In this document: positions 23,649-62,272 of the stretch, in pieces
Numbering within the stretch: position 1 is the first letter of the stretch
Layout: each line of letters begins with the position of its first letter
Origin: a virus
Strand: one strand, 5' to 3'
Length of the DNA: 64,000 bases
Virus record (IMG/VR): IMGVR_UViG_3300020538_000003
Location: 32,065 to 96,064 of that record
The notes under the pieces: generated by a model
What the model was told of the DNA's origin: nothing
Database searches by the model: none
The model's input: only the letters and a program-made list of their open reading frames with translations
Translations under genes and position numbers: made by a program

Positions 23649-26396
23649 TTATCTACATAAAAATATTTTTGTCTGCAAAGCTCCATATTCATCAACAAAA
23701 GAAAATGATTGTTCAGAATAAAAAACCCCTGTTGAAACAATAAGAAATTGACCACTTACATTTACTGTTGGAATTTTATCAAAATTCTTTTGTCCGCTAA
23801 TTATCTGATTGCCATTTGTCATTACAAAATCAGCATTTCCACTAACATCAGGAATTCGATAAACTCTATTTGCCGCAATTGGATTCTCAAAATTTACTGA
23901 TATAGAATTTGATGAAATATTACTTTTAAATATAAGTCCAGTTAAATTTGAATTTATTATTTGAAGTTGTTGGTTAAATATTTTTGATCCACTAATTAAT
24001 TGATCTCCAGATGTCATTACAAAACTAGCATTGCCACCAATATCAGGAATTGTATAAACTCTATTGCCACTAATTAAAGGTGCTGAAATATTAATTGCGC
24101 TTCCAGATTGACCTGTTCTAAAAGATAACTGGTTTCCAGTTGATTGAAATATACCTGTTGCTTGAAATATAGTTGGACTTAAAAAATTCTTAATTCCACT
24201 AATTGACTGATCTCCTTGAGTCATTACAAAATTAGCATCTACGCTAACATCGGGGATTCCATAAACCCTATTTCCACTAATTAAAGGTGCTGAAATATCA
24301 ATTTTATTTCCAGCATCACCAGTTCTAAAGGTTAATTGATTCCCTGTTGCTTGAAATATAGCCCCACTTAAAAAAGTTTTGCTTCCACTTATATTTTGAC
24401 TCCCAGTGACGATAACAGCATTACTTATACTACTTCCCCCTTCTCCTGAAAGCAAAACCCCAGTTCCATTTACAAATGGTCGCGTTGTAAAAGTTTTTAT
24501 TCCACCAATCGCCTGATCGCCAGTTGTCATTACAAAACTACCATCTCCGTTAACATCGGGAATTGTATAAATTCTACTACCACTAATTAATGGTGCTGAA
24601 ATATTAATGAAACTCCCAGCATCACCAGTTCTAAAAGTTAATTGATTTTGCGTTCTTTGAAATACAGCTCCACTTAAAAAAGTTTTACTTCCACTTATAT
24701 TTTGACTTCCAGAAGTATAAATTACATCGCCAATTATTAAACTTCTTTCGAAAGTTCCAGTATTTGTTACAAGACCATTATCCCATGAAATTATTGATTC
24801 ATTATTTAATTTAAATAAACCGCTTTTACCATTACCAAACCCAGTTATATTTCCACTTAAAGCTGCTTCAAAATTTCCTTCAGTAGTAATTAAACCATTT
24901 CTCCATTCAACGTATTGTAAACTACCAAGTGAAGTTGGTATAGATAAACTGCCATTTGTACCAAATTCTGGGAAACTTGTAATTTGATTATCTCCCTCTA
25001 ATGTAGAACTCAATACGCCATTATCCCATGAAATTATATTATCAATGGTTTCAGAACCACCAAGATCAATTTGTCTTTTTTGCAAAGACCCTATATTACT
25101 ATTATTAAATTGATCCCACGCACCATTATTACCAATAAATTTAACCCACTTGCCATTATTGTGTAAAAATAAATTATTATCTAAAAATTCAATTTGACCT
25201 TTTGCGCCATCATCTTCGCTATTGAGTGGATGATCATTAGTTCCATTAATAGCGTCTCCATTTTTAATAAAAAGTCTGTCTAAAAAAATAGTTTCATTTG
25301 CAAAACTTTTTTTTCCATTTATAGTCTGATCTCCTGTTAATGTGACTATATCTGTATAATCAATAATGCCAGTACCGCCACCGCCACCGCCACCTAAATC
25401 TAATCCATTTACTTCTCCCCAAAAATTAACTGGCCCATAAAAATCTGTAACTGAATCTTCTTGTAAAGAAAGATAGCCTCCATTTATCGACAAGGCTCCT
25501 CCAGTCATATTTAACGCAAGTCCGCTATTAATATTAATACCTTGATTATCAAAAATAATACGATCATTGCCAATATTAAGACTAGCGGAATTAAGACTAC
25601 CCAGTGTATTAACTACGCCAGAGAAATTGGAAGTAGAATTTGAATGCGTGGAAAATTGTCTTGCGCTTTTGATTGTTAAATTTGTATTTAAATCTAAAGC
25701 GCCAGCTATGTCCAAATTACCAGAAAAAATACCAGAAGCGCCAGTTGCTAGATATAAATTTTTATTATTTTTTATTGTTAAGCTTGAATTTAAGTCTAAA
25801 TCACCAAAAAAACCAACATGGCCAGAAAAAATACCAGAAGAATTTTCTCCCAAGTAAAGTATTGTTTCGTCTATTAGCAAATCATTATTTACTACAATAT
25901 CTCCATTAATATCTATTCCGTTTTCAAAATTTATATATAATTTATTAGAAGTATCTGCAATGATTGTATCATTTGTTATATCTGAAATTATTACAGAGCC
26001 ACTTATATTTTCATTTATAATAGAGTTTTTACCAGCTAACACTGTACAAAATCTAGAACCTTTTTCAAAAATAGATCCATCACAGTTTAAATCTAAATTT
26101 TGAAAACCAGAAACGTTAGAGTTTATAGAATTAATGATTGCATTGCCAGTGCCAATGATTCTATTATTTTGACCGCCCAAAATAACATTTCTAACATCTC
26201 CAAATATATTAGAGGAGTCTGTTGTATAAACTTTAGAGCCATTTAAAGTTAAACCACCAGTAATACTAAAATTTCCAGCTAAACTCCTATTTAAGTTTCC
26301 ATGAACATAATTTGTACCTTGTTGGAAGAAAATATCTCCACTAGGACTTGAAAAAGTATGAATTTCAATTTGTTCTGGTTGAATTTTGTTGTACAT
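23649..26396 (-). CDS. Tail fibre protein with internal repeats
   Basis: Beta-helix-like GGQNNRI/SG repeats, a poly-Gly hinge, and repeated V.TTGDQ.ISG.KTF modules. Confidence 0.8.
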   Translation of the reverse strand: MYNKIQPEQIEIHTFSSPSGDIFFQQGTNYVHGNLNRSLAGNFSITGGLTLNGSKVYTTDSSNIFGDVRNVILGGQNNRIIGTGNAIINSINSNVSGFQNLDLNCDGSIFEKGSRFCTVLAGKNSIINENISGSVIISDITNDTIIADTSNKLYINFENGIDINGDIVVNNDLLIDETILYLGENSSGIFSGHVGFFGDLDLNSSLTIKNNKNLYLATGASGIFSGNLDIAGALDLNTNLTIKSARQFSTHSNSTSNFSGVVNTLGSLNSASLNIGNDRIIFDNQGININSGLALNMTGGALSINGGYLSLQEDSVTDFYGPVNFWGEVNGLDLGGGGGGGTGIIDYTDIVTLTGDQTINGKKSFANETIFLDRLFIKNGDAINGTNDHPLNSEDDGAKGQIEFLDNNLFLHNNGKWVKFIGNNGAWDQFNNSNIGSLQKRQIDLGGSETIDNIISWDNGVLSSTLEGDNQITSFPEFGTNGSLSIPTSLGSLQYVEWRNGLITTEGNFEAALSGNITGFGNGKSGLFKLNNESIISWDNGLVTNTGTFERSLIIGDVIYTSGSQNISGSKTFLSGAVFQRTQNQLTFRTGDAGSFINISAPLISGSRIYTIPDVNGDGSFVMTTGDQAIGGIKTFTTRPFVNGTGVLLSGEGGSSISNAVIVTGSQNISGSKTFLSGAIFQATGNQLTFRTGDAGNKIDISAPLISGNRVYGIPDVSVDANFVMTQGDQSISGIKNFLSPTIFQATGIFQSTGNQLSFRTGQSGSAINISAPLISGNRVYTIPDIGGNASFVMTSGDQLISGSKIFNQQLQIINSNLTGLIFKSNISSNSISVNFENPIAANRVYRIPDVSGNADFVMTNGNQIISGQKNFDKIPTVNVSGQFLIVSTGVFYSEQSFSFVDEYGALQTKIFLCR
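23785..24725 (-). repeat. About four imperfect tandem repeats in the tail fibre C-terminus
   Basis: NQLTFRTG..G..I.ISAPLISG.R.Y.IPDV...A.FVMT.GDQ.ISG.K repeated; near-identical DNA at 24356-24407 and 24661-24712. Confidence 0.85.
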
Positions 26397-26436: not shown

Positions 26437-27021
26437 ATGAAATATACTTTATATAAACCTAATTCAAAAAATACTGGTTCAGCTTTTAGTTTCGAGATTG
26501 GGACTTCAAAGAATGGAGAGACCGCACTTTATGTATCAATGATCCAACAACATAGTTGGAACGATGTAACAAAAAATGGATCTTTTAAAGAAAATTCTAA
26601 AAATCCAGAAAAATCAGCCTCAATTAAAATTTCCGTAACAGAAGCTGGAGAATTTCTTTCTTCTTTTAAAACCAGAATACCTTACACGGCTTTTCATAAA
26701 ACAAAAGAGGATAGCACAATAATTAAATTAAATCCATGGGACAAAGTTAGAAAAATCAAAGAAATGGATGGAGAAAAATCTTATAATTCGCCAGCATTTG
26801 GTTTTTCTGTTTCTAGAAATTCAAATCAAAATTTTAAACTTCCGCTTGAAGCTGGAGAGGTTGAAGTATTAGCGCAGCTTTTAATTGAATACATCAAAAC
26901 ATCTTTTACCTTTTCAAGAAAGCAGGAAAATAATAATCAAAACACATATCAACAAAACAAACAATACCCATCAAAGCCAAAATCCGAACAAGTTGAATTA
27001 GAGGACGATGCCCCATTCTAA
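26437..27021 (+). CDS. Probable ssDNA-binding protein (PC4/Whirly-like)
   Basis: Start trimmed to MKYTLYK. Two beta-beta-beta-helix halves (I...EAGEFL / L...EVEVL), a Q/N-rich linker, and an SSB-type acidic tail EDDAPF. Confidence 0.6.
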   Translation: MKYTLYKPNSKNTGSAFSFEIGTSKNGETALYVSMIQQHSWNDVTKNGSFKENSKNPEKSASIKISVTEAGEFLSSFKTRIPYTAFHKTKEDSTIIKLNPWDKVRKIKEMDGEKSYNSPAFGFSVSRNSNQNFKLPLEAGEVEVLAQLLIEYIKTSFTFSRKQENNNQNTYQQNKQYPSKPKSEQVELEDDAPF

Positions 27022-28723
27022 AATTAAAATTCTTTTTCATTCTAATTATAGTAGAATGGTAACTGGATTTGGCAAAAATATGCGAAATCTATTACTTGCG
27101 CTACATAATGATCCAGATATAGAAGTTATTGAAGCCGCTAATGGTGTTCCATATGGGGCTGATGTTAAAACTCCATGGAAATGCTATGGAACAGCTCCTT
27201 CTGATCCTAATTTAATGAATGAAATAGGAAATGATGGAATGAAGCAAAGAATGGCTTCATATGGTTATTATTGTATTGATAAAATTATTGAAGAATGTAA
27301 GCCAGACATATATTTGGGTATTGAAGATATTTGGGCATTCAAAGATTTTGAGAAAAAACCATGGTGGAATACTTTGCGCACAATAATTTGGACTACACTT
27401 GATAGTGTTCCAATTTTACCAGACGCATTTCATATTGCGCCTAAATGTGATGAATTTATTGTATGGGCATCTTTTGCAGAACAGGAAATGAAAAAAAATG
27501 GTTTTCAAAATGTCAAAACTATTCATGGAGCTATTGATTATTCAGATTTTAAACCTCTTGCAGAAAGAGATCAAATTAGGTCAAAGTTCAATATAAACGA
27601 AGATTTTGTAATTGGCTTTGTTTTTAAAAATCAATTAAGAAAATCTGTTCCAAATCTTTTAGATGGATTTAGACTATTTAAAGAAAAGAATCCAAAGTTA
27701 AAAACCAAATTACTTCTTCATACAGATTGGTCTGAAGTTAATCATGGATGGGATATTCCAAGATATATTAAAGAAAAAAACATAAATGAAGATGATGTTT
27801 TAGCTTCTTACATATGTCATCAATGTGGAGAATTCTTTTTGCACAAATACATTGGAGAAAAGAAAGATTGCCCTTCTTGTGGAGCTAAGGAAAGAGTTCA
27901 TACAAAAAACAGTGGACTTGGGGTTTCCGAAGATCAATTGAATCAAATATATTCTTGCATGGATGTTTATTGTCATCCATTTACAAGTGGTGGTCAAGAA
28001 CTTCCAATTCAAGAAGCAAAAGCTGCTGGATTAATTACATTGGTTACAGAGTATTCATGCGGAACAGATTCTTGTTATCCTCATCAAGGTGGACTGCCTT
28101 TAAAGTGGAATGAATACAGGGAACCCCATACTCAATTCATTAAAGCAACAACCTGTCCACAAGATATTTGTGAAAAACTTGATAAAGTACTTAAAATGAG
28201 TTTTGATGAAAAACAATCTTTAATTCAAAATGGCAAGAAAACAGTTAGTGAAAAATTTTCTGTACAAAAAATTACAAATGATTTAAAAAACTTATTTATT
28301 GAATTAAAACAAAAGCAGAAGCCTTTTGCAGAAAATATAGAAAAAAATAACGATCAAAAACCAATAACATTAGAAGATCTTTTAGATAAAGATGACGCTG
28401 GAAAAAGAATTGCTGTCGTTATGCCAGAATCTGCTGGTGATGTATTGATGATAAATTCTTTATTAGATAATTTAAAATTAACATATCCAGACTACAATAT
28501 ATATGTAATAACAAAGCCGTCATATTATGATATGATAGAAGATAATGAAAATGTACATAAATTAATACCGTATCAAAATGGAATAGATAACTTATTATTT
28601 TTAGAAGGTCAAGGTCATCATCAAGGTTATTTTGAAATAGCATTTTTACCAAATATTGGCACTCAAAAATATTTGAACTACTTGCACAACGGAAAAGATA
28701 AAATACAATTTAATATAAAATGA
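27008..28723 (+). CDS. GT4-like glycosyltransferase with an internal Zn ribbon and a C-terminal GT9-like domain
   Basis: TGFG, KNQLRK, CHQC...CPSC, GGQELPIQEAKAAG; C-terminal MPESAGDVL...LK..YPD. Confidence 0.85.
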   Translation: MPHSKIKILFHSNYSRMVTGFGKNMRNLLLALHNDPDIEVIEAANGVPYGADVKTPWKCYGTAPSDPNLMNEIGNDGMKQRMASYGYYCIDKIIEECKPDIYLGIEDIWAFKDFEKKPWWNTLRTIIWTTLDSVPILPDAFHIAPKCDEFIVWASFAEQEMKKNGFQNVKTIHGAIDYSDFKPLAERDQIRSKFNINEDFVIGFVFKNQLRKSVPNLLDGFRLFKEKNPKLKTKLLLHTDWSEVNHGWDIPRYIKEKNINEDDVLASYICHQCGEFFLHKYIGEKKDCPSCGAKERVHTKNSGLGVSEDQLNQIYSCMDVYCHPFTSGGQELPIQEAKAAGLITLVTEYSCGTDSCYPHQGGLPLKWNEYREPHTQFIKATTCPQDICEKLDKVLKMSFDEKQSLIQNGKKTVSEKFSVQKITNDLKNLFIELKQKQKPFAENIEKNNDQKPITLEDLLDKDDAGKRIAVVMPESAGDVLMINSLLDNLKLTYPDYNIYVITKPSYYDMIEDNENVHKLIPYQNGIDNLLFLEGQGHHQGYFEIAFLPNIGTQKYLNYLHNGKDKIQFNIK

Positions 28724-35020: not shown

Positions 35021-36580
35021 TTAGTAATTTGATGTTATTGTGTAAGATATTTCGCTTTGTCCAACGGTTGATGTTTCATTTATTATTTTGCAGTTTTTAT
35101 TTAAATATTGTTTCGCTATATTTTTTAAAGTAGGCAAAGAACTTTCTAAATTATTTGCTGTTGCAGTTACACTTAATTCGCCAAGCATTCTATTTGCTAC
35201 AAGTTGATTTACTAATCCATTCATTCCATTTTTAAACATTGTAACAGCAACTGGTCTTGTATCAGATATCGATACTTCGCAATCATTTAATTGTCCGTTT
35301 GATGGGTCTATATTATTATTATAACTATACGAATAAGAAATTTTAGTTTCAAATGGGTTTTTATTAATATTTTCCGCGATAGCCTTATTATTTAAATAAC
35401 TACTCGATTCATATTGATTATTAGATAATGATATGAATGATGAAAAATGCTCTAATGCAAGTTGATATGGATTAATAGTGGAAATTCTTTGTTGTAATTT
35501 TGCAAATCTTGCGCTAGATTCTAAACTTCCACCAGTATATATATCATTTGGGCCATTATATTTTAATTCTCCATTAACGGAAACAGTAATTAAATTAGAG
35601 TCCTTGGTCGCACTAATTGAAACGGTATAATTGTTTAGCACATCTTCATTTCTTGTGTCAGTCGCATTAGTGAATTCAAATGAAAAAGAAATTGTATTTG
35701 ATGCTTGATTATGGGTATAATTATAAGAACTTGGACCTCTTGAAATTATATCATAAATATTGTTTTCAAAATTTGATTTTGATTTAATTAATGCGTTTGA
35801 AGCGAATTCTTTAGCTTTGTTTGAGTCAAATAAATTTTCCGAAACCTGTTCTCCATTAACACTTCCAATAATATCTCCATTTACAGAAATTTTAACAGAA
35901 TCACCTTTAGAATATGAAATCTGTACTTTAGGGCTAATAATAGCGTTATTAGAGATAGGATTTTTGCTTACATCAAGTTTCCAATTTCGCGTTAAAGAAT
36001 AAAATCCTCTAAAACGATCATATTGTTCTATTTCTGATCTTAAAAAAGCATTTTGTCCAGAATGAAAAAAACTATAATCTTTAAAAGAATCAAGAGAAGA
36101 AGAAACAAAATTAATTGCTTGGTCTATTGCAGTTGAACTATCCACCTTTAATCCTACGGCGGAAATAGTGTTTGTTACATCAACAATTCTACCATCTTGT
36201 TCAGAATATGACCAAGTATTTACTGGGTCTTTAATTCCATAATAATTAGAAAAGCTTGTATCTTCGTAAGCCTCTAATTCAATTGAGTAAGGTAAAATTC
36301 TACTTAAATTTGACTCTTGAAAAGAAATGGAGACTGGTTTTACAAAATTAAAACTTTCAGAATCAATTGTTAAATTTTGATATTCAGATAAAAACCCACT
36401 AATTAATTTTTGTTTTGTTGTATGAATTTTTAATAAATTTTCGCCAGTTATTTTTCCGATTAAAGTAATTTTTTTAGAAAGATGATCCAAAGAACCTTCC
36501 ATATAAATAGGGTTATCATCTATCGCCACAAATGGAGATGGTTCTGGTAATGTATAAGATCCATAAGATACTGTGCTCAT
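35021..36580 (-). CDS. Tail tip structural protein
   Basis: Beta-rich; downstream of the tape measure gene. Confidence 0.6.
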   Translation of the reverse strand: MSTVSYGSYTLPEPSPFVAIDDNPIYMEGSLDHLSKKITLIGKITGENLLKIHTTKQKLISGFLSEYQNLTIDSESFNFVKPVSISFQESNLSRILPYSIELEAYEDTSFSNYYGIKDPVNTWSYSEQDGRIVDVTNTISAVGLKVDSSTAIDQAINFVSSSLDSFKDYSFFHSGQNAFLRSEIEQYDRFRGFYSLTRNWKLDVSKNPISNNAIISPKVQISYSKGDSVKISVNGDIIGSVNGEQVSENLFDSNKAKEFASNALIKSKSNFENNIYDIISRGPSSYNYTHNQASNTISFSFEFTNATDTRNEDVLNNYTVSISATKDSNLITVSVNGELKYNGPNDIYTGGSLESSARFAKLQQRISTINPYQLALEHFSSFISLSNNQYESSSYLNNKAIAENINKNPFETKISYSYSYNNNIDPSNGQLNDCEVSISDTRPVAVTMFKNGMNGLVNQLVANRMLGELSVTATANNLESSLPTLKNIAKQYLNKNCKIINETSTVGQSEISYTITSNY

Positions 36581-38058
36581 GATGTTACATAATTAATTGT
36601 GCGAGTTGTTGTTCCATTTGCTGAATCTATTGAAATCTGATCGGACTCAATATATCCATTTATAATTGGAGCATTATTTAATAAATATGTTTCTCCAAAT
36701 CTAAGCCCTTTAGATTTAAAAGGAACCACAACCATTGACAAACTCCCTCTTCCATTGCCCTTCTTATCAGATGTAGCAATTTTTTCATTTAAATCAGAAA
36801 GATCAATTACTTTTTCAAATATATCTGTTGGATCAGTTGTTGATTTTGTTGTTTTGAATTTTAAAATGCCATTATTAGTATTATAAGAACTGTCTGTAGA
36901 AAAAATAACGTTATCGTTGATTTTACCTTCATGCTTTATAAATGATGTAGATCTTGATTTTTCATATACAGATCCAACAGATGAAAATAAAGAATTTATT
37001 TTGCTGCTATATGTAGATTGAGTTGAAGAATAAATATTTTTTACATTTTGAAATCTAGTTTCAAGATTTTTTCCTTCAGAAATGTAACTTATATTTATTT
37101 GATATTCATAATACGCCCCGCTTTTTTGTTTAGATACTTCATATGAAATAACACTTTCTTGATTTTTATTTGGATTATTGGTGAATGACATTTTTAATGT
37201 AATAACACCACTGTCTTTACTAATACCTTTTTCTATCAATATTGGACGACCATATGTTGAGTTTTCTGTTGAAACTATTTCATCTATTTTTAATTTTGCG
37301 GCACTTAAAGCATTTTCCTCAATTGGCTCTTTCAAGGCTTTTATTTGTATGTCGTAAGATTTGTTTTTAAAACCATTATCATCAACACTTGTTGTAAAAG
37401 AAGAAGTGAAAGAAATATTATTCACTATATACGTAGATGATTGAAAATTTTCTGTAAAAGAAACAGATAAATCTATAAGATTAAAGTTTTCCGTTTTATT
37501 TGTTTTCCAACTTGTTGTAGCGGCATTTCCATATTGCGGTCTATTATTAAAATAAAAGTTATTTAAAAATATTTTTGCATTATCTAAAAACTGACTTCCA
37601 GCATCTTGCTTATATTTTATAGAAACACTTCTATCAAAAGAATAACTATCGTCTGAATATGATGAATTTAAATTTTCTTGAAAAGATTCTATCCATTGTG
37701 GGCTTGCAAGACTTTGAGCAAAACTGTTGTTTGAATATGAATTTAATCTTTTAGACTCTTGTATTGCTATTGTCGCAGTTGTTGAACCAGCAAGAGATGT
37801 TTCTTTGAAGGATAAGGATGTTAGTCTTCCATTAAGAAATTCATCTCCTCCAATTCTAGCGACAATATTTTTTCTAGCATATGCGGCCTTCAAAGCTTGT
37901 TGCCCAACAAGTAAAACATTATTTTCTTCAAATTCAACGTCAGAAATATCAACCGTATAACTTGCTAAAACTTCATACCCAAATAAATTAACAGAATCAA
38001 AATAGTTATAATTTATTTGAATTGAAGAATTTGTAACTTTATTTATTAGTAAACTCAT
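36577..38058 (-). CDS. Distal tail-like structural protein
   Basis: First gene after the tape measure gene; beta-rich; resembles the next gene in composition. Confidence 0.6.
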   Translation of the reverse strand: MSLLINKVTNSSIQINYNYFDSVNLFGYEVLASYTVDISDVEFEENNVLLVGQQALKAAYARKNIVARIGGDEFLNGRLTSLSFKETSLAGSTTATIAIQESKRLNSYSNNSFAQSLASPQWIESFQENLNSSYSDDSYSFDRSVSIKYKQDAGSQFLDNAKIFLNNFYFNNRPQYGNAATTSWKTNKTENFNLIDLSVSFTENFQSSTYIVNNISFTSSFTTSVDDNGFKNKSYDIQIKALKEPIEENALSAAKLKIDEIVSTENSTYGRPILIEKGISKDSGVITLKMSFTNNPNKNQESVISYEVSKQKSGAYYEYQINISYISEGKNLETRFQNVKNIYSSTQSTYSSKINSLFSSVGSVYEKSRSTSFIKHEGKINDNVIFSTDSSYNTNNGILKFKTTKSTTDPTDIFEKVIDLSDLNEKIATSDKKGNGRGSLSMVVVPFKSKGLRFGETYLLNNAPIINGYIESDQISIDSANGTTTRTINYVTS

Positions 38059-38063: not shown

Positions 38064-41000
38064 TTAATTTACTTGACGTAATCTTTTTTCAATATCTAAA
38101 AGTCTTTGATTAATCGTAGTTGATAATCTGTTTAAATTGCCTGTAAATTCTTGGAATCCCTTTACGTTATCACTTGCATTGAATATCGATTCTGATAAAG
38201 CTTCCATAGCTTTAGGTATTCCAGTTGGTTTAAAATCTTCTGAAAACTTAGCAATCCTTTCGTTAAGATTTTTTAATTCTAGGGAAGTCCTATTCCTTTC
38301 ATCTTCCAATTTTTTAATATCATCTTTATTTTCATCTGGTTTGCCAGCTTTAACACCAGTTAAAGCAGCTTGAATAGTTTTTCTTGACTGATCAAATCTT
38401 GAACCTTGCATTTTTTCATCTATGAGTTTTTGTAATGCAGGAACATTTTTAACATCAAGTTTTGCCGCTTCTATAGCTTTTTGTATATCTGACGGTAATT
38501 GATTTGAACCTAATGATTTTAATAACGCATCTTCAATTCCTTTATAATTTATTTGTGATGCAGCAGTACCAGCGGTTAAATTTTGAGTTTCCTTTAAACC
38601 AAGTCCAGAAGATTCGGCTAATTTTCTAGCAGCCTCTTCGCCAAAAATTTCCCTAAATTTAACAAACTGCTCAGAAACTCTATCTATAATTTTAGCAGCT
38701 TCCTCTGGATTTGTTGCTGAAATTTTTGCCGCTTCTGAAAACGCTTTAGAAATTGCAAGAGGATCAATTTTTGGACCTTGTGTTATTGATGATAATTTTT
38801 CTGTGATTCCAGAAATAGATGATGTTATTTTTGATTGTATTTCTTTATTAGTGGTGATTAATTTGTTTTCTAAGTCTGTTCTTTGATTAATCATTCCTTT
38901 CATTGTCTCAGCAACATTATTTCTAAATGTTTGCGCAGATGAAATTACATTATCTTTAAATTTTTGAGCAGCTTCGCCTTCAAGATTAATATATTTTGAC
39001 AGTTCTTGAGTTACTCCTTGAGAGCCTTTTTCCATATAGGCTTTAAATACATCAGCAGAAACTATACCAGAAATTTCAGCACCCGTTTTGCCTGACAATT
39101 GCGATTGTTTAACCTGGTTCATCATACTAGCAAAATCAGAACTAGCGAAATTTCCCCTAAAATCTACAGCAGATTTAGTGCTTTGAGTTACGCTTTGTTG
39201 CGTTTCAACTGCTGATTTTACAGCACCTGAATATTTAGATCCTTCTTTCGCTGTAAATCCTCCCGCTATTCCCTCAAGAAATGATTGTTGTTCTAATTTA
39301 GTAGATACAAGATCTAATGTTTTAGAAAACTTCGCTGCAGACTCCTGTATTTTTTTTGCAAAATCTTCTGTAAAATTAATGTGATCCAAACTATTTTTCG
39401 CTCTTTTTATAGCCTCTATATATTGAAAAGATGCTTCGTTTTTATCTTCTTCTGTAGAAGTTTGCTCTTCGTAAATTTTTTTCAAATTAGATTCTGCGTC
39501 CTGTAATGGTTTTATAGACATACTTCTATCTTTTAACGCTTTGATTAAATCTTGTTGAGCGGATGCAGCGTCTTTGTTGGTTTCAGAACCAAATGCTTCT
39601 TGTCGGCCCTTCCTTACAGCGGTTAATCCCTTAAGTTTTTTATTAACTTCTTCTTGTATTTTAACACCCTCCTCTTGTTTGTTTTTTACATCTTTATAAG
39701 CGTCTACTACAGACATTACCACTCCAGCAGCAGCACCTACTGCTACACCATATGGACCAAAAACAGATCCAATTGAAGCAAATTGAGCGGCTGAAGAAGT
39801 TATTGTTTTAGCAGCGCTAGTCATAGACGAGTCTAATTCTTCTGCTGGGCCGATTAAAGATGGAACAGAGGAAAGAGCCATAGATAACGCAATAGAGGCT
39901 CCACTGAATTTTTCAAGTGAAAATTTAACTTTTCCATCTATGTCGTCAGGTGCTTTAGCTGCATAATTAGGGATAAAACCACGAGCTGCTCCATATAATT
40001 TTGGATTAGCCCCTTCTTTTCTTGCGCGACTAATTCCTTGAATACCACCAGCTGGTTCATCACGACGATTAGCAACCATTAATCCCATTGGATTCATGGA
40101 GTTCTTTAATGATGAATTTTGGTCTACATAAATTTGTGAAGCTGGAACCCCAGCAGACATTTCGCGGCCAATAGCCTCTTTAAGTGGATCTGCAAAATTA
40201 GGAATGTATCCAGTCGCTTTATTTTTTTTAGAAATTGATTTGCTAATTGCATCATTAATTTTTGCAGAATATTCTTTCTTAACTTTAGCCGCCATGCTTT
40301 CTTTGTTTGTTTCTGCCGAATATTTGAAATCTGCTAATCCACTAGATACAATTGAATCTTCTCCAAATAGTTTTTTAATAGAATTTATTTGTTCGCCAGT
40401 AGCTCCAGCGGTTCTTACATCAAAATTACCGCCAGAAGCTGGATTTAATGCTTTGTATTGCAAGGTAGAGCTGATTGCAGCTTCAAATAAAGATCCAGAA
40501 GCAGATCTAATAGCGCCTTTAAATCCTTCACCACCCATAACTTCTTTAACTGAATCTGGTTCTGCTGGTTTTAAATCTAACGCTTTTGCTAATACTCGTG
40601 ATTGATTTAAAATGAATTTTCTTGCTACTTCCTCTATTTCTGTTTCTCCAAAGTTTTTTTCAAAATTTTGCCTAAGTTCATCTGTACCTCCTGCTTTAAA
40701 AGCGTCGAAAACATATTTTAATTTAACGCCAGAATCTTTTAAGTTTTGTGTATAAGTAATGTCTTTTGAATTATCATTAGGCGTTAACATGGTTGGCATT
40801 TTAGTTCCAATTATAGAACTAACATCTAAAATAATACCTTGTTTCTGTGATTTTTCATCAAGCATTTTTTTAGCATTTGCCGCTCTTTGTTTAGAGATTG
40901 GATCATCACCTTGATATGCAGCATAGTCTCTTAATTTATTAGGAGATGTACCTGGAGGAATGGAAGAACTTCTTGCTTTTACAAAATTAGGAATAAATCC

Positions 41001-43253
41001 TTTGGCCGCATTAATTAAATTAAAATTACGAGATTTTGATTTAACATAACCCATAAAATCAAACTGATTTAATGGCGCATAAGTTGTTCCTTTTAATTGT
41101 TTTTTACTTCTTAAATCCCCTTCTTCTGCGACCGTTCTTCCAGCTCTTCTAGATAAGATATCAAGATTTTTTGCATAAAGATAAGACACTTTACCGTCAG
41201 AACCATTTACTGCTGAAATTATAGCTTCTAAATTTTTAGATATACCACCTCCTTTTGCACGAGCAGCTCCAGAAAGAATATCAATTTCGGTGGCATTAGA
41301 CACATCATCAGCATTAGAAAGAAATTTTCCTGTTCTACCAGCTAATGTCGATTTGCCCGATCCCGCTGGACCAATAATAAGATTCTTTTTAACTTGAGAA
41401 GCAAGAACTGCTTTTAAGGTAGCCCCTTTGTCTGGAGCAATCCTATCGGAATCATAAATGTATTTTGCAAAGTTAGGAATATAACCTTTATTATACATTG
41501 GTATAACAGCAGAATCTCCATTTTTTCCGAATTTTGGTATTTCGATTTCTTCATTATTCATGATGAACTTTTGTCCACCAATTTTGCCTTTGCTCATTTT
41601 AGCCTTAACATTCGGACTTGCTCCTAACATTCGCGCCTGAGCCTCCTCAACCATAAATCCAGCAGCAAAAGTTTTTTTGCCTTTGCCAGTAAAGCCCTTA
41701 TCTGGACTGTATCCAACAACACCTCTTTGAGCTGCTGCCGTAGCAATACTTCTTAATAACTGTTCTTGTTGTCTTAATAAATCATTTTCTGCTTTAATTG
41801 CATTAATAACAGCCTGTTCTTTTTGCGCTTGCGTTGCTGTTGAACTAGCTATAATTGCTCTTAATTGCTGATCTCTTGACAAAAGACCAACAATTCCACT
41901 TTCAATATTTTTAATTTTTTCTGATTCAGAACCGATTTGTAATACAGTTTTAAAACCTTCTTTTGCAAATTTTGCAACAAGAGAAAATATTTTTAAAAAT
42001 CCTGTTGTTATAAGAACCAAACCTGGACCAGAAAGAAAGTTTCCAATAGCGTCAAATATTCCTTGAATAAATTTATTACCCTTTTCTGGATCAAATGCTG
42101 TTTCTAAAAAGGATGTAAACTCATTAGCCAAGCTTAAAAGATTTTTTATAATTGGCCCGAACGTTATTGTCCCAATTTTTTCTGATAAATTTGTTAAACC
42201 AACAACTAACGCATTCATTTGAGAGTTGATCATTTCATTTAATGCGGCATTTTTTGTAAACGCTTCATCCATCGCTGATGCAGATTTGCTTGCCGCTTGA
42301 GAAAAAATAGATGTATCCGAACCCAAATCCTTGAGTGCGGCACTAACAATGTTTATTTGATAAACGCCACCAGCCAATTCTTTAATTTTATTAGCTACAG
42401 TTGGATCGCTTATATTTTCAAGTGATTGAGATAATGCTTGAAGTTTTTGAACGCCACTTTGAGAAGAATTAATCTCGACACCAAGTTCCCGCAAATCTTC
42501 TACAACAGAACCTCTGCCTAATCTAGTAAATATAGATTTTAATGCGTTACCAATAACTGCTCCACCACGAGATGTTGTTTGTTCAACAGCAGTAACTATA
42601 CCTAAAAGTTCATCGAAACTAACTCCAGCATCTTCTGCGGTAGAACCAGCTCTACTAAATGCTTCAGCCAAATCTTGAGCTGAAACAGCAAACGCTGTAT
42701 CAACAGCAACAAGTTTGTTGGTTATTTGTTCTGCGGTTAATCCAGCGCTACTAAATCCATTAATTGCGGCGGTAAGAGCTTTTACTGATTTAACTGAATC
42801 AAGACCAGAAATTCTCGTTAAAACCAATGCAGACTCAAGTCTTTTTGCAGTTTCCTCTGCATTTAAACCCTGTCTTGCTAATTCTGATGCGGCATCTGCA
42901 ACAACATTAAAAGATTGTCCAGTGGTTTTTGCAACATCAAAAATTGTATTTCTAAAATCGTTAAGCTGGGAACCTGTAGATCCAATTATTGTACTTATTT
43001 CCGTTAATCTTTTTTCAACATTTATCGTATTAGCAATAAGCCCTTTGAACGCTTGAGAAACTCCATTTAATATAGAGGTAGTAGCTCCGAAAGCAAATAC
43101 ACGAGCAGTTGAAGCGTCAAGTGATTTTTGAAACTCTGAAGCTTGACCCGTAATCCTTCCTAAAGCTTGTTGAACCTGTTTTGACGCAGCATTAATGCTT
43201 TGGGGATTCAGGGTTAAATTACCTGTAATATTAATACCTGATGTGTTGGCCAT
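38064..43253 (-). CDS. Tape measure protein (TP901-type core) with internal enzyme-like cargo domains
   Basis: A..LARQG, DKLVAVD..FAVS..DLAEA..RAGS.A, GG.VIGNALKSIFTRL; 1729 aa, helical, with TM-like segments. Confidence 0.92.
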   Translation of the reverse strand: MANTSGINITGNLTLNPQSINAASKQVQQALGRITGQASEFQKSLDASTARVFAFGATTSILNGVSQAFKGLIANTINVEKRLTEISTIIGSTGSQLNDFRNTIFDVAKTTGQSFNVVADAASELARQGLNAEETAKRLESALVLTRISGLDSVKSVKALTAAINGFSSAGLTAEQITNKLVAVDTAFAVSAQDLAEAFSRAGSTAEDAGVSFDELLGIVTAVEQTTSRGGAVIGNALKSIFTRLGRGSVVEDLRELGVEINSSQSGVQKLQALSQSLENISDPTVANKIKELAGGVYQINIVSAALKDLGSDTSIFSQAASKSASAMDEAFTKNAALNEMINSQMNALVVGLTNLSEKIGTITFGPIIKNLLSLANEFTSFLETAFDPEKGNKFIQGIFDAIGNFLSGPGLVLITTGFLKIFSLVAKFAKEGFKTVLQIGSESEKIKNIESGIVGLLSRDQQLRAIIASSTATQAQKEQAVINAIKAENDLLRQQEQLLRSIATAAAQRGVVGYSPDKGFTGKGKKTFAAGFMVEEAQARMLGASPNVKAKMSKGKIGGQKFIMNNEEIEIPKFGKNGDSAVIPMYNKGYIPNFAKYIYDSDRIAPDKGATLKAVLASQVKKNLIIGPAGSGKSTLAGRTGKFLSNADDVSNATEIDILSGAARAKGGGISKNLEAIISAVNGSDGKVSYLYAKNLDILSRRAGRTVAEEGDLRSKKQLKGTTYAPLNQFDFMGYVKSKSRNFNLINAAKGFIPNFVKARSSSIPPGTSPNKLRDYAAYQGDDPISKQRAANAKKMLDEKSQKQGIILDVSSIIGTKMPTMLTPNDNSKDITYTQNLKDSGVKLKYVFDAFKAGGTDELRQNFEKNFGETEIEEVARKFILNQSRVLAKALDLKPAEPDSVKEVMGGEGFKGAIRSASGSLFEAAISSTLQYKALNPASGGNFDVRTAGATGEQINSIKKLFGEDSIVSSGLADFKYSAETNKESMAAKVKKEYSAKINDAISKSISKKNKATGYIPNFADPLKEAIGREMSAGVPASQIYVDQNSSLKNSMNPMGLMVANRRDEPAGGIQGISRARKEGANPKLYGAARGFIPNYAAKAPDDIDGKVKFSLEKFSGASIALSMALSSVPSLIGPAEELDSSMTSAAKTITSSAAQFASIGSVFGPYGVAVGAAAGVVMSVVDAYKDVKNKQEEGVKIQEEVNKKLKGLTAVRKGRQEAFGSETNKDAASAQQDLIKALKDRSMSIKPLQDAESNLKKIYEEQTSTEEDKNEASFQYIEAIKRAKNSLDHINFTEDFAKKIQESAAKFSKTLDLVSTKLEQQSFLEGIAGGFTAKEGSKYSGAVKSAVETQQSVTQSTKSAVDFRGNFASSDFASMMNQVKQSQLSGKTGAEISGIVSADVFKAYMEKGSQGVTQELSKYINLEGEAAQKFKDNVISSAQTFRNNVAETMKGMINQRTDLENKLITTNKEIQSKITSSISGITEKLSSITQGPKIDPLAISKAFSEAAKISATNPEEAAKIIDRVSEQFVKFREIFGEEAARKLAESSGLGLKETQNLTAGTAASQINYKGIEDALLKSLGSNQLPSDIQKAIEAAKLDVKNVPALQKLIDEKMQGSRFDQSRKTIQAALTGVKAGKPDENKDDIKKLEDERNRTSLELKNLNERIAKFSEDFKPTGIPKAMEALSESIFNASDNVKGFQEFTGNLNRLSTTINQRLLDIEKRLRQVN
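39960..41486 (-). repeat. Four G[YF]IPN[FY] peptide motifs inside the tape measure protein
   Basis: GYIPNFA 41466-41486, GFIPNF 40983-41000, GYIPNFA 40191-40211, GFIPNYA 39960-39980. Confidence 0.9.
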
Positions 43254-43271: not shown

Positions 43272-44153
43272 TCAAGTCAAAAAGTCTTCTGCCTTTAAAG
43301 AACCTCCCCTAGCAGCGCTTTTAATTTTTAAATCCTCAACACCATGACTTACATTAGATTTTTTTGCATCTTCTTTTTCCACATAATCTAATATTTTTAT
43401 TGGATCTTCTAATATTGAATCAGGGATTGAATAATTTTTAAATTTATTCAATAAAGAGTTGGCGTAAATTAATATATTTTTTTGATAAATTGTTAAATCA
43501 AAACCAGATTTATTAAATATAACATGAGGTTGCCTATAGTGCAAACTCATTAATTCAAAGAAGGACGGATTATAGGCGCTATAAACAATTATTTCTTTAG
43601 AATTTAAATCAGACATTTTATTAAATAATTCAGAATGATAAATAATTGATTCTTCTTCACTAACTGGTTCTGTAAAAGATTTATCTTTGAAAAAACAATT
43701 TGCTATTAAATTTTTAAATTTTTTATTTTGAGCAAAATTTTCGGCACTAAATTTTACCAAAAGATCTTTTTCATTCTTTAATTTTTCTAAATCTTTAGAT
43801 TTGCTTTCGACATTTTGTTTTAAAGAAAGCTTTTGTATCGGATCATTCATCTTTTTTTCGGCTTCAACAAGCTTGGCCATCATCCATTTTAACGATTTAA
43901 TCTCTTCTTCTTTATCTATTGTCCAATAACCATTTTTGATCGCAGAATCAATAATTTCTTTTTCTGTTTTAATGCCAGCTTTTTTTGCTGATCTTAAATA
44001 AAAGTCATAAGTTTCTTCTATTAATAGAATTTCACTTAAGGCAAAATGTTTAAAATAAAATTCGTGGTTTTCAGTATGTATTATACTAAAACCACGAACA
44101 ATATCAATTAAAGCGGAGTGTGCTTTAGAATTTAACTCATCTTTATTTTTCAT
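43272..44153 (-). CDS. Probable tail assembly chaperone 2
   Basis: Immediately upstream of the tape measure gene; helical and charged. Start trimmed to MKNKDEL. Confidence 0.55.
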   Translation of the reverse strand: MKNKDELNSKAHSALIDIVRGFSIIHTENHEFYFKHFALSEILLIEETYDFYLRSAKKAGIKTEKEIIDSAIKNGYWTIDKEEEIKSLKWMMAKLVEAEKKMNDPIQKLSLKQNVESKSKDLEKLKNEKDLLVKFSAENFAQNKKFKNLIANCFFKDKSFTEPVSEEESIIYHSELFNKMSDLNSKEIIVYSAYNPSFFELMSLHYRQPHVIFNKSGFDLTIYQKNILIYANSLLNKFKNYSIPDSILEDPIKILDYVEKEDAKKSNVSHGVEDLKIKSAARGGSLKAEDFLT

Positions 44154-45036
44154 TTGAGTTATCTTTTTCGATAACTTCATCAACTTGCTCTTCAGAATCT
44201 TGTTTGTTTATTTCGGAATCAGCTTCTATTTTTGCACTGTCTTCAATGAGATTTTCTGAAGAATCACCAAACATTTCATTTATCGCTTTTTCAATATCCT
44301 CTTGTTTTTCTGCAATCTTATTGTACCATATACTTGCCGTTCTTACTAAAGTATTAAATGATTGATCGAATATATTTTTTATTTTCAATAAAGATTGATC
44401 ATCTATGTCTTCTATAGACTCACACAACTCAAGATAAAATCTTCTTTTTTGATCAAAACTATCTCCTTGAAAAATTGGAAATAATTGTTTTTTAGAATCA
44501 ACTTCTTCTTCGTAATAAGACAAATTAAAGACGAGCCATTCAATAAGCTTTTGCTCTGCCTTCGCATCTGCTGTTTGTGAAAACTGAGATCTCATTGATT
44601 GTTCGTATTCAAAAATATCATTTTTTGTACTAACAAAAATTCCTTTTGCTTCTTGTAATTTTTCTTTTTGCTCTTCTGTTAAATCCGTTGATTCTCCAAA
44701 AAATTCAATTGTTCTAGAAGCCTCCATATTATCAATAATGGATTTTTGTAATTTTTCTATTGAAATTTTTGAAGAAAAACCTCCAATATCGCCCATTTTT
44801 TTATTTAACATAGCTTTAGTTAAAAAGCCAGAATTGATATATTCATTGAATTTTTGACCATAAAAAAACTCAGCCTCTTCTATTGTTGCCATTGAAGGTT
44901 TCACGAAAACAACTCGATTTGGAGTACACTCAATTACTTTTTTTGTTGATTCTACGCTACCATCTTTAGTTTTTTTTATATATGGTATTGTTTTTTCTAC
45001 TTTTCTTTCTATCTTAAAGCTGTAAATTTCTTTCAT
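44143..45036 (-). CDS. Probable tail assembly chaperone 1
   Basis: Lies between the tail tube and tape measure genes; acidic C-terminus. Confidence 0.55.
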   Translation of the reverse strand: MKEIYSFKIERKVEKTIPYIKKTKDGSVESTKKVIECTPNRVVFVKPSMATIEEAEFFYGQKFNEYINSGFLTKAMLNKKMGDIGGFSSKISIEKLQKSIIDNMEASRTIEFFGESTDLTEEQKEKLQEAKGIFVSTKNDIFEYEQSMRSQFSQTADAKAEQKLIEWLVFNLSYYEEEVDSKKQLFPIFQGDSFDQKRRFYLELCESIEDIDDQSLLKIKNIFDQSFNTLVRTASIWYNKIAEKQEDIEKAINEMFGDSSENLIEDSAKIEADSEINKQDSEEQVDEVIEKDNSNEK

Positions 45037-45506: not shown

Positions 45507-46400
45507 TTATGTACTTGGCATTAATATCCTTGATATAGAATTTTTATTTAAACTAAATTCATAATTAAAATCAATTGTTGCATTATCATCTAATTGTGAA
45601 TTTTCGGATATGGAAGTAAGAGAACAACCGCTTACAATATATCTTAATATTGGATTACTTAAATTTTGATTTAAATTTATTGTAAAGCTTCCTTTATTTA
45701 ATATTATACTGGACAAATCTATTCCAGTGATTTGATTTTTCATAACAGAAAAATTTAATGTTCCATTTATTGGAAGCTCTGGATATCTAAATTGTGAAGA
45801 AGCGTTGCCAAGGATAGTTATTGCTTTTCTTTTTATTGGAACTTTTAATTCAAAAGATTGTATATTAAAATTATTGTTAGAAATAGACTCTCCAAAATTA
45901 CCTGAAACCATAATTCTATGAGGTCTAAACGCACAAGCAATATCATTATTTAAATTATTTGTAGTTAATCGTCCACCTGTATTATAACTTATATCGTTAG
46001 CTTCATATTCAACAGAACCAACAACAAAATTATCCAAAGAACCATTTATAGAATAAGATGTTAAATATGCACCGCTAACAATATTTTCTCCAGCAAAATT
46101 TCTGAAACTTAAATTAAAAGTTTCTGTTGATAGTAAACCAGATGTTTGAAATTGATAAAACGGATCGCAAACGAATCTATTTGCATTAATTGGTGAATTA
46201 TTATCAATTAAAATAAAATCTAAACTTACATTAATTTTTTGATTTGGATTTAAAATTCTGTTAGTTACGCTATATGAACCTAAATCTTGAATTTCAGCAA
46301 AATCTTTTGTCTCATTAATTGAAAAAGATTGAACTCCAGTTAATCTTTGATTTTTTATAAAAACTTCAGATTCACTTGAATGAATTCTATCTACGCGCAT
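45507..46400 (-). CDS. Tail tube protein paralog
   Basis: Shares A.L.SY, IQS....VP..R..I..LG....F..PE.PIN and LDD..T.D motifs with 46489..47700. Confidence 0.7.
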   Translation of the reverse strand: MRVDRIHSSESEVFIKNQRLTGVQSFSINETKDFAEIQDLGSYSVTNRILNPNQKINVSLDFILIDNNSPINANRFVCDPFYQFQTSGLLSTETFNLSFRNFAGENIVSGAYLTSYSINGSLDNFVVGSVEYEANDISYNTGGRLTTNNLNNDIACAFRPHRIMVSGNFGESISNNNFNIQSFELKVPIKRKAITILGNASSQFRYPELPINGTLNFSVMKNQITGIDLSSIILNKGSFTINLNQNLSNPILRYIVSGCSLTSISENSQLDDNATIDFNYEFSLNKNSISRILMPST

Positions 46401-56186: not shown

Positions 56187-58082
56187 TCAAATTGAAAATG
56201 GAATAAAAGTATTAAATTCTTTTTTTTCTTCTTTTACGTTGCCAGAGTCGAATAATATTTTTGAAAACCAATTTCCAAGAACTAAAGCTGAATAAGAGTC
56301 TTTTCTAGCTCTATTTGGACCTTTTTGGCGTTTTAAATTTTGTGGAAGTTGAAATGATTGAGTTCCTTGTGGATTCGAAACGACCTCAATGTTGGCGCAT
56401 TCAGATTTTGTTAATTCTATCATTGTTTTTTGATGATCAATAAAATCAATCATTGCCGCCGCTTGTGAAGTTTTTGACAATTTTAAATCCCACTTTAAAT
56501 TTTCTACAGGAATTGTTTTTTTTCTTTGTTCGTCAAAATGTTCGTCAATAGCTCTAGATGCAAACAAGATTCTTTTATGATCAATTGATGCCTGAAGCAT
56601 TTCATTTGCAGATCTAATCCAAGAAGCAGATGGTTTTCTTAAAATACAATATCTTCTTTCTTTTTGGTTATATTGATTTTTAAACATTAATAATTCTTCA
56701 TGATATAATTCTGGTTTATCAAAATCAACTTCAATTGTATTAATTTTTAATGCAGCTTTTTTGAATAATTCACTTTCATTGCATGAATTTATAAATTGAA
56801 CTCCTCCATTATAGTCTCCACATATTCCTACAATATTAAAGTGATTGATCAAATAAAAGAAATAAAACATATGTTCTTTTAAATCAACTCCAGCAATAGC
56901 ATAACTATGAACAAGACATACTTTTTGATCTTCTCTATTTACTTTAAATACTTGTATGGCAAAATGGTCTGCGCTGCTATTTCCAGCCCAGTTGGGGTCA
57001 AATGAAATGATATATTCATCACTAGGATTACCAATAACTTCAACTGCTGGAAAATCTCCATCAGGAATTGTGCAAGCAGCCATTTTAGATAGTCTAAAAT
57101 AACCATCACTTTCATCAACAAATTGCGCTCCGAATTCTCTTTTAAATTGCATTTCACTCATTGTTGCTTTTGCTTGTTTAAGCAAATTTTGATCATACAG
57201 CCTTTGTGGAGCGCAATCATAACTTAATTGCATTATTAAACGATAGGCATTATCACTTAATTCATCTTCATCTTCATTTTCTTGACTAAGATCTTCTCCA
57301 AAAATTAATGATTCGTACTTTTTGTAAAGTTTATACATATATTCAAATTTAAAGGACGGAGATGATAAGATTATCAATTTATTATTGGGCCACACATATC
57401 TTTCATCTTCTTGCATCTCGCCTTTATCGATTATTCTCGATTCTAATTTATGAAGCTCCTCTCTTTCAATGGGGTTTTCAATAACCCCTAAGAATGGAAG
57501 AATAACTTCCGTAAAGATTTTTTCTGGTATAGTTAAGAACTCATCAAGAACTATTCGATTAAATCGAAAACCACGTAAGCGTTCTCCATTAGCTAATGGC
57601 AAAGCAATTGCCCTGCTATTGCCAATAGATAGTGTCCACATATCTGTGCCTTTTGTAATTTTAACACCACAATCTTTTGCTAATTTTGCTTCTGGCTTAG
57701 ACAATATATCTTCCATTTTTTGGAAAATTTGTTTAGACTGCCTAAAACTTCCCGCAATAACACCGATATTAGCTCTTGGATTTAATAAACATTCAAGCAA
57801 TACATAAATTGCAGTAGAATACGTTTTAGACATACCCCGTGAAAACACAAACATTGAATAATCGGAAACCATCATTCCTTTAATTGCCATTGTTTGGAAC
57901 GGAAATAATTTAACTCCTAAAAATAATTCTGCAGTATAAGCAATATTATTTCTTAGAAAACGATATAATTCGTATTTCGCTTCTTCTTCAGATAGATTTC
58001 TATCTATTAATTTTAGATGCTCGTTTAATTGATTAGCCGAATAATCAAGTCGAAATCTTTGTTTTCCTTTTTGCCATGCCAT
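56187..58082 (-). CDS. terL: Terminase large subunit
   Basis: LFPFQ (Q motif), SRGMSKT, RLRG.R....VLDE, LSSP; RNase H domain ISFDP...D...KDSYSA. Confidence 0.92.
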   Translation of the reverse strand: MAWQKGKQRFRLDYSANQLNEHLKLIDRNLSEEEAKYELYRFLRNNIAYTAELFLGVKLFPFQTMAIKGMMVSDYSMFVFSRGMSKTYSTAIYVLLECLLNPRANIGVIAGSFRQSKQIFQKMEDILSKPEAKLAKDCGVKITKGTDMWTLSIGNSRAIALPLANGERLRGFRFNRIVLDEFLTIPEKIFTEVILPFLGVIENPIEREELHKLESRIIDKGEMQEDERYVWPNNKLIILSSPSFKFEYMYKLYKKYESLIFGEDLSQENEDEDELSDNAYRLIMQLSYDCAPQRLYDQNLLKQAKATMSEMQFKREFGAQFVDESDGYFRLSKMAACTIPDGDFPAVEVIGNPSDEYIISFDPNWAGNSSADHFAIQVFKVNREDQKVCLVHSYAIAGVDLKEHMFYFFYLINHFNIVGICGDYNGGVQFINSCNESELFKKAALKINTIEVDFDKPELYHEELLMFKNQYNQKERRYCILRKPSASWIRSANEMLQASIDHKRILFASRAIDEHFDEQRKKTIPVENLKWDLKLSKTSQAAAMIDFIDHQKTMIELTKSECANIEVVSNPQGTQSFQLPQNLKRQKGPNRARKDSYSALVLGNWFSKILFDSGNVKEEKKEFNTFIPFSI

Positions 58083-62074: not shown

Positions 62075-62238
62075 GTTTAAATAAAGGGGTGGGGTTTGGT
62101 TTGAATTTGATAAATGTATGGTGTTCACCCCCTCCCCCTACTTTTTCGAAAAATCAATTTTTGCAAAATTTCAGAAAAACCCACCCCCTTGTCAAGAAAA
62201 AGATGTGAAAAAAAATAGTGAAAAAAATCTTTTTTTTG

Positions 62239-62266: not shown

Positions 62267-62272
62267 TCTTAC

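Follow-up and report, generated by a model that had tools for sequence, protein, structure and literature searches.

A tape measure protein with an array of exchangeable cassettes between copies of a conserved joint peptide in a divergent, uncultured phage

The stretch of DNA discussed here, 64,000 nucleotides (nt) from positions 32,065 to 96,064 of the IMG/VR virus record IMGVR_UViG_3300020538_000003 (hereafter the window), encodes on its minus strand a tape measure protein (TMP) of 1729 amino acids (aa), and it is the middle of this protein that concerns us. There is strong support for describing it as an array of independently folding cassettes, held between a conserved left and a conserved right bookend and separated by copies of a short joint peptide, G[YF]IPN[FY]. 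Support is equally strong that this joint is where whole cassettes are added, dropped, rearranged, and passed horizontally between phages, with the reading frame kept. What would such an array be for? The explanation that we favor, with slightly more than even confidence, is that the joint-exchanged cassettes are pre-made proteins that would be brought into the host, the delivery being proposed by analogy with other virion-borne proteins. The phage of the window carries two cassettes, namely, a P-loop domain that resembles kinases and zeta toxins and an orphan domain restricted to TMPs; taken as a whole, this is the account toward which we lean, if only narrowly.

The protein and its joint peptide

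The 1729-aa open reading frame (ORF) is a TP901-type TMP. The Pfam family PF10145 matches it with 88.7 bits (cut-off 33.2, E=6e-25), and 12 of its 13 PHROG matches belong to tape-measure families, the best with E=4e-40. The PHROG matches to tape-measure families cover the first ∼600 residues, and weaker ones reach further. The features of the protein are collected in Table 1.

The four copies of the joint motif that a preliminary description of the window had placed at aa 590, 752, 1015, and 1092 are all present. A search with aa 560-1130 returned 395 protein clusters; the best 120 of the 395 were analyzed, and all are TMP-sized metagenomic proteins. Every one of these 120 TMPs, among them all 119 relatives examined, carries the motif, in 2-11 copies each and 478 in total. 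The extended logo, drawn from the 474 fully flanked copies, reads [AG][AS]xG[YF][IV]PN[FY]A. An origin of the motif by chance or from low-complexity sequence was rejected, given that 9e-5 copies are expected from the composition of the TMP and that G, P, and N are invariant in the 474 copies.

At the variable positions, the codons differ among the four copies of the window; therefore, the constraint acts on the peptide and does not simply reflect a DNA repeat. The joint motif is, in other words, under selection at the protein level. In the AlphaFold2 models the modules are folded and the joints are disordered, and the predicted local distance difference test (pLDDT) is <50 for both motifs that flank module 1; as modeled, the joint motifs are flexible, disordered linkers between folded modules. 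Self-cleavage of the 2A-like stop-go or of the intein-like kind was set aside on sequence grounds: neither NPGP nor His-Asn is present, and the Asn is not followed by a nucleophile.

Table 1. Features of the tape measure protein, with positions in the window
Feature	Residues	Position (nt)	Strand	Basis or remark
TMP gene (P0001)	1729 aa	38064..43253	-	ORF list and translation, Pfam, PHROG
TP901-type TMP core (PhageMin_Tail)	104-295	42369..42944	-	Pfam PF10145
Hydrophobic segment 1	402-431	41961..42050	-	Kyte-Doolittle, 19-residue window, peak 1.80
Left bookend	518-589	41487..41702	-	translation; conserved segment in relatives
Joint motif 1, GYIPNF	590-595	41469..41486	-	pattern match
Module 1 (class C1), predicted P-loop domain	596-751 (156 aa)	41001..41468	-	AlphaFold2; structure and embedding matches
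Walker A, GPAGSGKS(T)	628-636	41346-41372	-	pattern match
Joint motif 2, GFIPNF	752-757	40983..41000	-	pattern match
Module 2 (class C3)	758-1014 (257 aa)	40212..40982	-	between motifs 2 and 3
Module 2, folded core	807-1008	40230-40835	-	AlphaFold2, pLDDT 82-95
Module 2, E924	924	40482-40484	-	conserved residue
Module 2, D945	945	40419-40421	-	conserved residue
Module 2, D975-x-K977	975-977	40323-40331	-	conserved residues
Joint motif 3, GYIPNF	1015-1020	40194..40211	-	pattern match
Module 3 (class C2)	1021-1091 (71 aa)	39981..40193	-	terminal unit of the array
Joint motif 4, GFIPNY	1092-1097	39963..39980	-	pattern match
Hydrophobic segment 2	1116-1137	39843..39908	-	Kyte-Doolittle, peak 1.47
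Hydrophobic segment 3	1158-1187	39693..39782	-	Kyte-Doolittle, peak 1.67
C-terminal part	1188-1729	38067..39692	-	composition; no Pfam domain

The cassette array and its bookends

When the 120 TMPs were split at the motif and the pieces were clustered, ∼40 classes of inter-motif modules emerged, together with a few classes for the segment that precedes the first motif. The window has the order left bookend, C1 (module 1), C3 (module 2), and C2 (module 3), and the orders found in relatives include C3-C1-C2, C1-C2, C3-C2, and C12-C5-C2, with up to ten units per protein. The expectation of the preliminary description, that the domains between the motifs would vary among homologues, is thus borne out: modules are shuffled, added, and dropped from one relative to another. 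One of the relatives, P0117, has a GNAT acetyltransferase domain at aa 1359-1419 (26 bits, cut-off 20.7), between motifs at 1339 and 1523; therefore, an enzyme type that is cytoplasmic and dependent on a cofactor does occur as a cassette.

Module 3 calls for a different description from the one that it had received, that of a short spacer. C2 is the last unit wherever it is present, that is, in 72 of the 120 TMPs, and the others end with a shortened C2-like unit. Because C2 or its shortened counterpart ends the arrays, module 3 is best seen as a conserved right-hand bookend, the last unit of nearly every array. Its model is a small alpha-beta-beta-alpha unit with a pLDDT of 55-69. The strings REMSAG and VANRRDE, cited for it in the preliminary description, are present in the translation. 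As for its proposed resemblance to the segment before motif 1, a profile-profile comparison gives a match of weak significance over 12 columns, with E=0.046 and a probability of 1%; BLASTP finds only the motif.

The left bookend has observations of its own. In the window it is of a divergent type and includes two degenerate copies of the motif, IPKF (572-575) and IPMY (584-587). In contigs L002-L013, which have the common type of left bookend, two extra [IV]PNF[AN] copies stand ∼20 residues apart before the first full motif, ∼240 nt ahead of the first joint motif (e.g., L008:2743-2982).

Exchange of cassettes at the motif

The preliminary description had suggested that the peptide might serve as a recombination joint for the swapping of cassettes, and the DNA supports this directly, with breakpoints exactly at motif copies and few synonymous changes in the shared blocks. 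The contrast is already visible at the protein level. Relatives P0009-P0023 are 91-94% identical to the window in C1 and 90-97% in C2, and only 41-43% in the N-terminal core and 31-37% in C3; in the C-terminal half of the TMP they give no match. At the DNA level, blastn against the IMG/VR contigs L002-L004 returned three matches only, including one of 64% in the core. The first high-identity block (93%) covers aa 588/590-757, starting with the first base of motif 1 and stopping with the last of motif 2; the second (90-94%) covers aa 1017-1097, from motif 3 to motif 4. The two blocks are adjacent in L002-L004, and in the window C3 intervenes between them. Among the C1 codons that specify identical residues, only 8-9% differ, and because of this low figure the identity is attributed to recent transfer and not to purifying selection alone.

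Gain and loss of single cassettes can be read from close relatives of the window TMP. P0007 is without exactly aa 754-1016, that is, one motif-to-motif unit, and its junction lies inside motif 2; otherwise it is 96-100% identical to the window, save for the hydrophobic stretch after the array (79%). P0004 is without C1. Both cases are read at the protein level. The 85-kb contig behind L001 is 99.5% identical to the window and differs only at aa 758-809, directly after motif 2. When L001:3487-3684 is set beside positions 40827-40982 of the window, it is the first ∼50-65 residues of module 2 that differ, and those of L001 are related to the residues that open this module in L003 and P0004. A smaller sub-module or linker is therefore exchanged too, beginning from the joint.

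Module 1, a predicted P-loop domain

Module 1 was modeled by AlphaFold2 with 50 relatives as the alignment, which gave a confident fold (pLDDT 78, predicted TM-score 0.75). In the structure comparison by VIA, the best match is adenylate kinase 7owe (Z 6.7, root-mean-square deviation (rmsd) 4.4, 108 aligned residues), and the Clostridium polynucleotide kinase 4gp6 (Z 6.5, rmsd 3.5, 112 residues) and zeta toxin 6epg_B (Z 6.2, rmsd 3.9, 135 residues) are also found. Foldseek ranks the same kinase families, weakly, with E of 0.009 or worse. In the ESM Atlas, the ten best named matches are all Zeta_toxin/AAA_33, with a score of 0.91 and 170-177 shared features. A profile built from module 1 only and searched against the PDB matched generic P-loop stretches only.

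Conservation across 90 copies of C1 resembles that of an active site. In Walker A, residues P629, G631, G633, K634, and T636 are invariant, and the variable positions are G628 (kept in 62 of 90) and S635 (82 of 90). Also invariant are R703, R706, D713, R715, D601, and D603, with R702 kept in 88 of 90 copies, E656 in 92%, and D658 in 84%. The strings ADD and LSRRAGR, the latter proposed earlier as lid-like, are present in the translation. Of the earlier claim that module 1 is P-loop kinase-like, the part that stands is the one carried by the predicted fold and the embedding; in terms of sequence families it does not, no family reaching its threshold. Likeness to kinases and zeta toxins is moderately supported, and module 1 is read as a genuine nucleoside triphosphate (NTP)-binding domain whose activity would probably be phosphotransfer.

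Module 2, an orphan domain

Modules 2 and 3 were modeled jointly from an alignment of 59 relatives. The first ∼50 residues of module 2 are disordered in the model and are followed by a confidently predicted core made up of a four-stranded sheet, long helices, and two further strands. The strings GSLFEAAI, NFDV, and LADFK, in which the preliminary description had recognized a PD-(D/E)xK nuclease-like signature, are all present, and the residue pattern is kept across the family. Among 60 relatives, no exception is seen at G920, F923, F963, and K977, an acidic residue (Asp or Glu) occupies positions 924 and 975 in every case, and position 945 is Asp in 82% and Asn in 10%. The same acidic...D...[DE]xK pattern appears in an alignment of module 2 only. 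In the predicted secondary structure, the pattern residues are found on helix 158-180, strand 195-196, and strand 222-225 of the model, and thus on a helix, a strand start, and a strand, as in PD-(D/E)xK enzymes. Unlike in the canonical PD-(D/E)xK hairpin, there is a helix between the two strands that bear the catalytic pattern.

No nuclease was found by the structure searches (Foldseek against the PDB and BFVD, VIA wide, and pdb_via), in which the best match, with Z 5.8, is a helix pair only. Nor did module 2 match anything in Pfam (E up to 10), the PHROGs, PDB sequences, the PDB profiles, whether full-length or module-only, or the ESM Atlas. Because no search gives a nuclease, or any other fold or family, the nuclease reading is drawn from the residue pattern, and we put it at somewhat short of an even chance. 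Among 1.84 billion representative proteins, module 2 occurs in 45 matches, and these are only TMP-sized proteins or short fragments.

Regions flanking the array

The array lies between hydrophobic segments, as had been noticed from the sequence, with one peak at aa 402-431 before it and two, at aa 1116-1137 and 1158-1187, after it. Beyond these, aa 1188-1729 look, from their composition, like a long helical region of the coiled-coil type; in a family-profile search against the PDB, the region equivalent to them matches coiled-coil proteins only. Pfam found no muralytic domain in the window TMP. In P0009 there is a lysozyme at aa 1935-2059 and the array ends near aa 1153, so that the wall-degrading domain is far outside the array.

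Most of the relatives P0009-P0120 are 2200-3000 aa long, and their C-terminal ∼500 residues contain conserved repeats of the type D-[DI]-[VI]-P-A-x-L-x-x-G-E, which match the solved TMP chains 8zdo_S and 8iyk_H. The window TMP and its closest kin (1500-1740 aa) are without this repeat-bearing part and without a muralytic domain. The ORF at 36577-38058 was considered as a detached C-terminal part of the TMP and rejected, as nothing in it resembles P0009, a longer relative.

Possible role of the cassettes and alternative explanations

TMPs fill the tail tube and exit ahead of the DNA. Because of this order of exit, cassettes loaded in the tail would enter the host cell together with the TMP, as pre-made proteins, and by analogy the tail probably carries a changeable set of such ready-made proteins into the host. 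There, in the first seconds of infection, they might act on nucleotides, nucleic-acid ends, cell-wall precursors, or host defenses, either tethered to the TMP or following cuts at the joints. Module 1 would phosphorylate a host or phage target, or hydrolyze NTP on it, and module 2 may possibly cut nucleic acid.

Several observations weigh against this proposal. The best Z value of module 1 is below 8, and the Z values alone are compatible with a generic P-loop arrangement; no Pfam, PHROG, or PDB sequence match to it passed its threshold beyond the P-loop, with AAA_33 (PF13671) at only E=0.12 over 17 residues and Zeta_toxin (PF06414) unlisted. The usual position of the catalytic base, D650, is Asp in 64 of 90 copies (71%) and Gln in 23, and the invariant D601, D603, and D713 could be stand-ins for it. 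Module 2 has no structural or family match in the searches run. The cassettes of four other long relatives had no match in Pfam, and most of the other classes scanned are without such a match, so that the term enzymes is established for few of them. A naive topology with three hydrophobic segments would put the array on the C-terminal side, the one that bears lysozyme in relatives, and hence in the periplasm. Lastly, it is difficult to see how a tail tube could accommodate three folded globular domains for each TMP chain.

Does the conserved joint point to processing as well as to recombination? One alternative, which we consider possible but doubtful, is that the TMP is a polyprotein precursor, with the joint as the site for a host or phage protease or for self-cutting, and is cut at every motif, either in tail maturation or after ejection; the modules would then be freed as separate proteins, and the N- and C-terminal parts would be left as the ruler and channel. 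The joints would suit this role in being disordered, exposed linkers that are conserved far beyond the need of a passive linker, and near-identical phages tolerate the gain or loss of 160-260 aa of array, which is easier if the array is outside the count of tail length. There are precedents: the TMPs of T5 and lambda are cut in tail morphogenesis, that of T5, pb2, after R1127, between a hydrophobic stretch and the enzymatic domain (PMC10038345), and the T5 site, ...SFVPR|AEGG, has F-V-P in common with the motif. This likeness, however, is of three residues, and the array and the C-terminus of pb2 are not significantly similar (BLASTP E=0.25); moreover, Pfam found no protease domain in the TMP, and gp96 of phage P23-45, a TMP with a built-in enzyme, remains full-length in virions (PMC10770324). 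A bolder form of the delivery proposal unites both functions in one peptide. The joint would be a recombination joint and a processing site, and the TMP of a large group of uncultured aquatic phages a plug-and-play injection rack, an idea that we offer only tentatively; equally tentative is its corollary, that any cassette, be it kinase-like, nuclease-like, an acetyltransferase, or one of dozens of unknown folds, could be loaded in the tail and set free in the host at the moment of infection, and could pass as a unit from one phage to another, unrelated one.

The cassettes may, instead, not be effectors at all. They could be domains for docking to the envelope or membrane, for forming a channel, or for plugging it, or they could be parts needed for tail assembly in the producer cell, which we judge rather unlikely; in the same vein, and with as little weight, the repeated peptide could be a docking site for a tail assembly chaperone or for the tube lumen, with ATP used by the P-loop domain in the producer cell only. 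A short peptide that recurs at set positions is what one would typically expect of a binding site, hydrophobic segments flank the array, module 2 and most other classes are restricted to TMPs and resemble no enzyme of the cytoplasm, and the naive topology sets the array together with the C-terminus, which in relatives is muralytic. Yet the Walker A, the lid rich in arginine, and the acidic/Lys constellation are conserved and look catalytic, GNAT and kinase-like domains depend on cytoplasmic cofactors, and single cassettes come and go freely between near-identical phages, which speaks against an essential structural role. The turnover of modules, rapid and accompanied by horizontal exchange, could also reflect immune evasion, with diversifying selection on a TMP region sensed by host defense and cassettes that are decoys or shields and not effectors; bacterial receptors are reported to sense certain phage proteins, TMPs included (PMC13581612). 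This we regard as very improbable: C1 and C2 are 62-99% identical across TMPs whose cores are ∼40% identical, a sign of strong purifying selection and the opposite of what a decoy would experience, and residues resembling an active site are invariant.

Relation to known systems

One of the closest precedents is gp96 of the Thermus phage P23-45. The N-terminal part of this TMP is an active virion RNA polymerase, which is carried in virions within the full-length TMP and is located on the phage DNA 5 min after infection (PMC10770324). As in our proposal, an enzyme that acts in the cytoplasm is built into a TMP, N-terminal to membrane and peptidase parts, travels in the virion, and works from the onset of infection (PMC10770324). 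The differences are that gp96 has one fixed enzyme, with neither a repeated joint peptide nor cassette exchange, and that its delivery is demonstrated, whereas for the window TMP it is suggested by analogy. No sequence relation of the window TMP to gp96 was seen.

Polyvalent proteins, described by Iyer et al. in 2017, also join many effector-type domains in a single chain, which enters together with the invading DNA; their domain content varies between relatives, and their processing into units has been proposed (PMC5512222). The window TMP, with two unrelated folded modules, and its relatives, with as many as ten inter-motif units that include GNAT, have varying content of the same type. In contrast, that paper describes no conserved joint peptide and has no mention of tape measure or tail proteins (0 occurrences); polyvalent proteins are packaged in the head, and the carrier in the phage of the window is the tail ruler. 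The hallmark domains of polyvalent proteins, MPTase and others, were not found by Pfam in the window TMP or in six relatives.

Other comparisons are more limited. T5 pb2 and lambda gpH share with the window TMP the hydrophobic stretches, and in them an enzymatic domain is separated from the ruler by a cut (PMC10038345). There, however, a single cut near the C-terminus frees a muralytic domain, whereas the window TMP has 4 joints in mid-protein and others have up to 11. Muralytic TMPs, such as SPbeta YomI and the relatives with lysozyme, chitinase, VanY, or SLT, likewise have enzymatic domains in a TP901-type TMP; the lysozyme of P0009, though, is downstream of the array and not between motifs, and the window TMP is without one. 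Zeta/PezT toxins and AAA_33 kinases (PF06414, PF13671) have the P-loop kinase fold class to which module 1 would belong by its model; module 1 differs from them in being only 156 aa long, in having a catalytic-base Asp that is not invariant, and in matching no family profile above threshold.

How widespread are these modules? A tblastn search of 50,697 deposited phage genomes gave no match to module 3 and, for module 1, only chance-level P-loop matches with E ∼0.5. No prophage copy of C1 or C2 turned up when 185,579 prokaryote species genomes were scanned twice for peptide patterns, weak evidence of absence given that few exact patterns were used. A search of the full-text literature for the motif found no relevant paper, and in the literature on tape measure proteins no description of such a cassette array was found. 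Enzymes built into TMPs and polyvalent virion proteins are already known; what is truly new is that the trade in cassettes takes place at a universal joint peptide.

Apart from muralytic domains and the RNA polymerase of P23-45, which are isolated cases, enzymes borne by TMPs have not been known. Were the cassettes indeed delivered, the lumen of the tail would be a general and evolvable injection route for pre-made proteins, and the arrays a large reservoir of undescribed phage effectors that act early; ∼40 classes occur in 120 proteins, and most are without a known family. Should the injection-rack version be true, one would be dealing with a mobile "effector cassette" system for virion-delivered proteins, with a logic like that of integron cassettes or polymorphic toxins. 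For practical purposes, the joint peptide permits cassettes to be found and excised from metagenomes automatically, and it points to a naturally permissive place at which a phage tail could be loaded with foreign domains. For studies of structure and function, the orphan module 2 offers a compact target, as does the P-loop domain with its minimal 156 aa.

Genomic setting

The TMP gene is the longest ORF in a co-oriented block that extends from the terminase (56187-58082) by way of a capsid-like gene to a fibre protein bearing BppL_N. Of 20 proteins of the structural block (30607-56144, minus strand), 18 are without a PHROG family at E<=0.001; only a tail protein (45507-46400) and the large terminase have one. 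Because 18 of these 20 neighbors are without a match, the source is considered a divergent phage; it is uncultured, and its virion module is far from those of cultured phages.

Upstream of the TMP gene, the ORFs 44143-45036 and 43272-44183 (both on the minus strand) overlap by 41 nt and have no PHROG match; the pair (43272-45036) occupies the place of the tail assembly chaperone pair, which a programmed frameshift usually produces. The 915-aa protein at 23649-26396 (minus strand) matches BppL_N with E=4e-18 over the whole protein, no single stretch passing alone, as would be expected if a fibre or receptor-binding protein were built of many weak repeats.

The G+C content of the phage is ∼30%. 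At 62001-64000 of the window it rises to 44%; no Rfam family and no tRNA is found there, and the Rfam and tRNA scans of the window as a whole were likewise empty. The ORFs 3700-5241, 13883-15547, and 27008-28723 encode, respectively, a DnaB-type helicase, the large subunit of a class I/II-type ribonucleotide reductase, and a group-1 glycosyltransferase-like protein. As annotated, these genes would fit a lytic phage of ∼100 kb with its own nucleotide and glycan metabolism.

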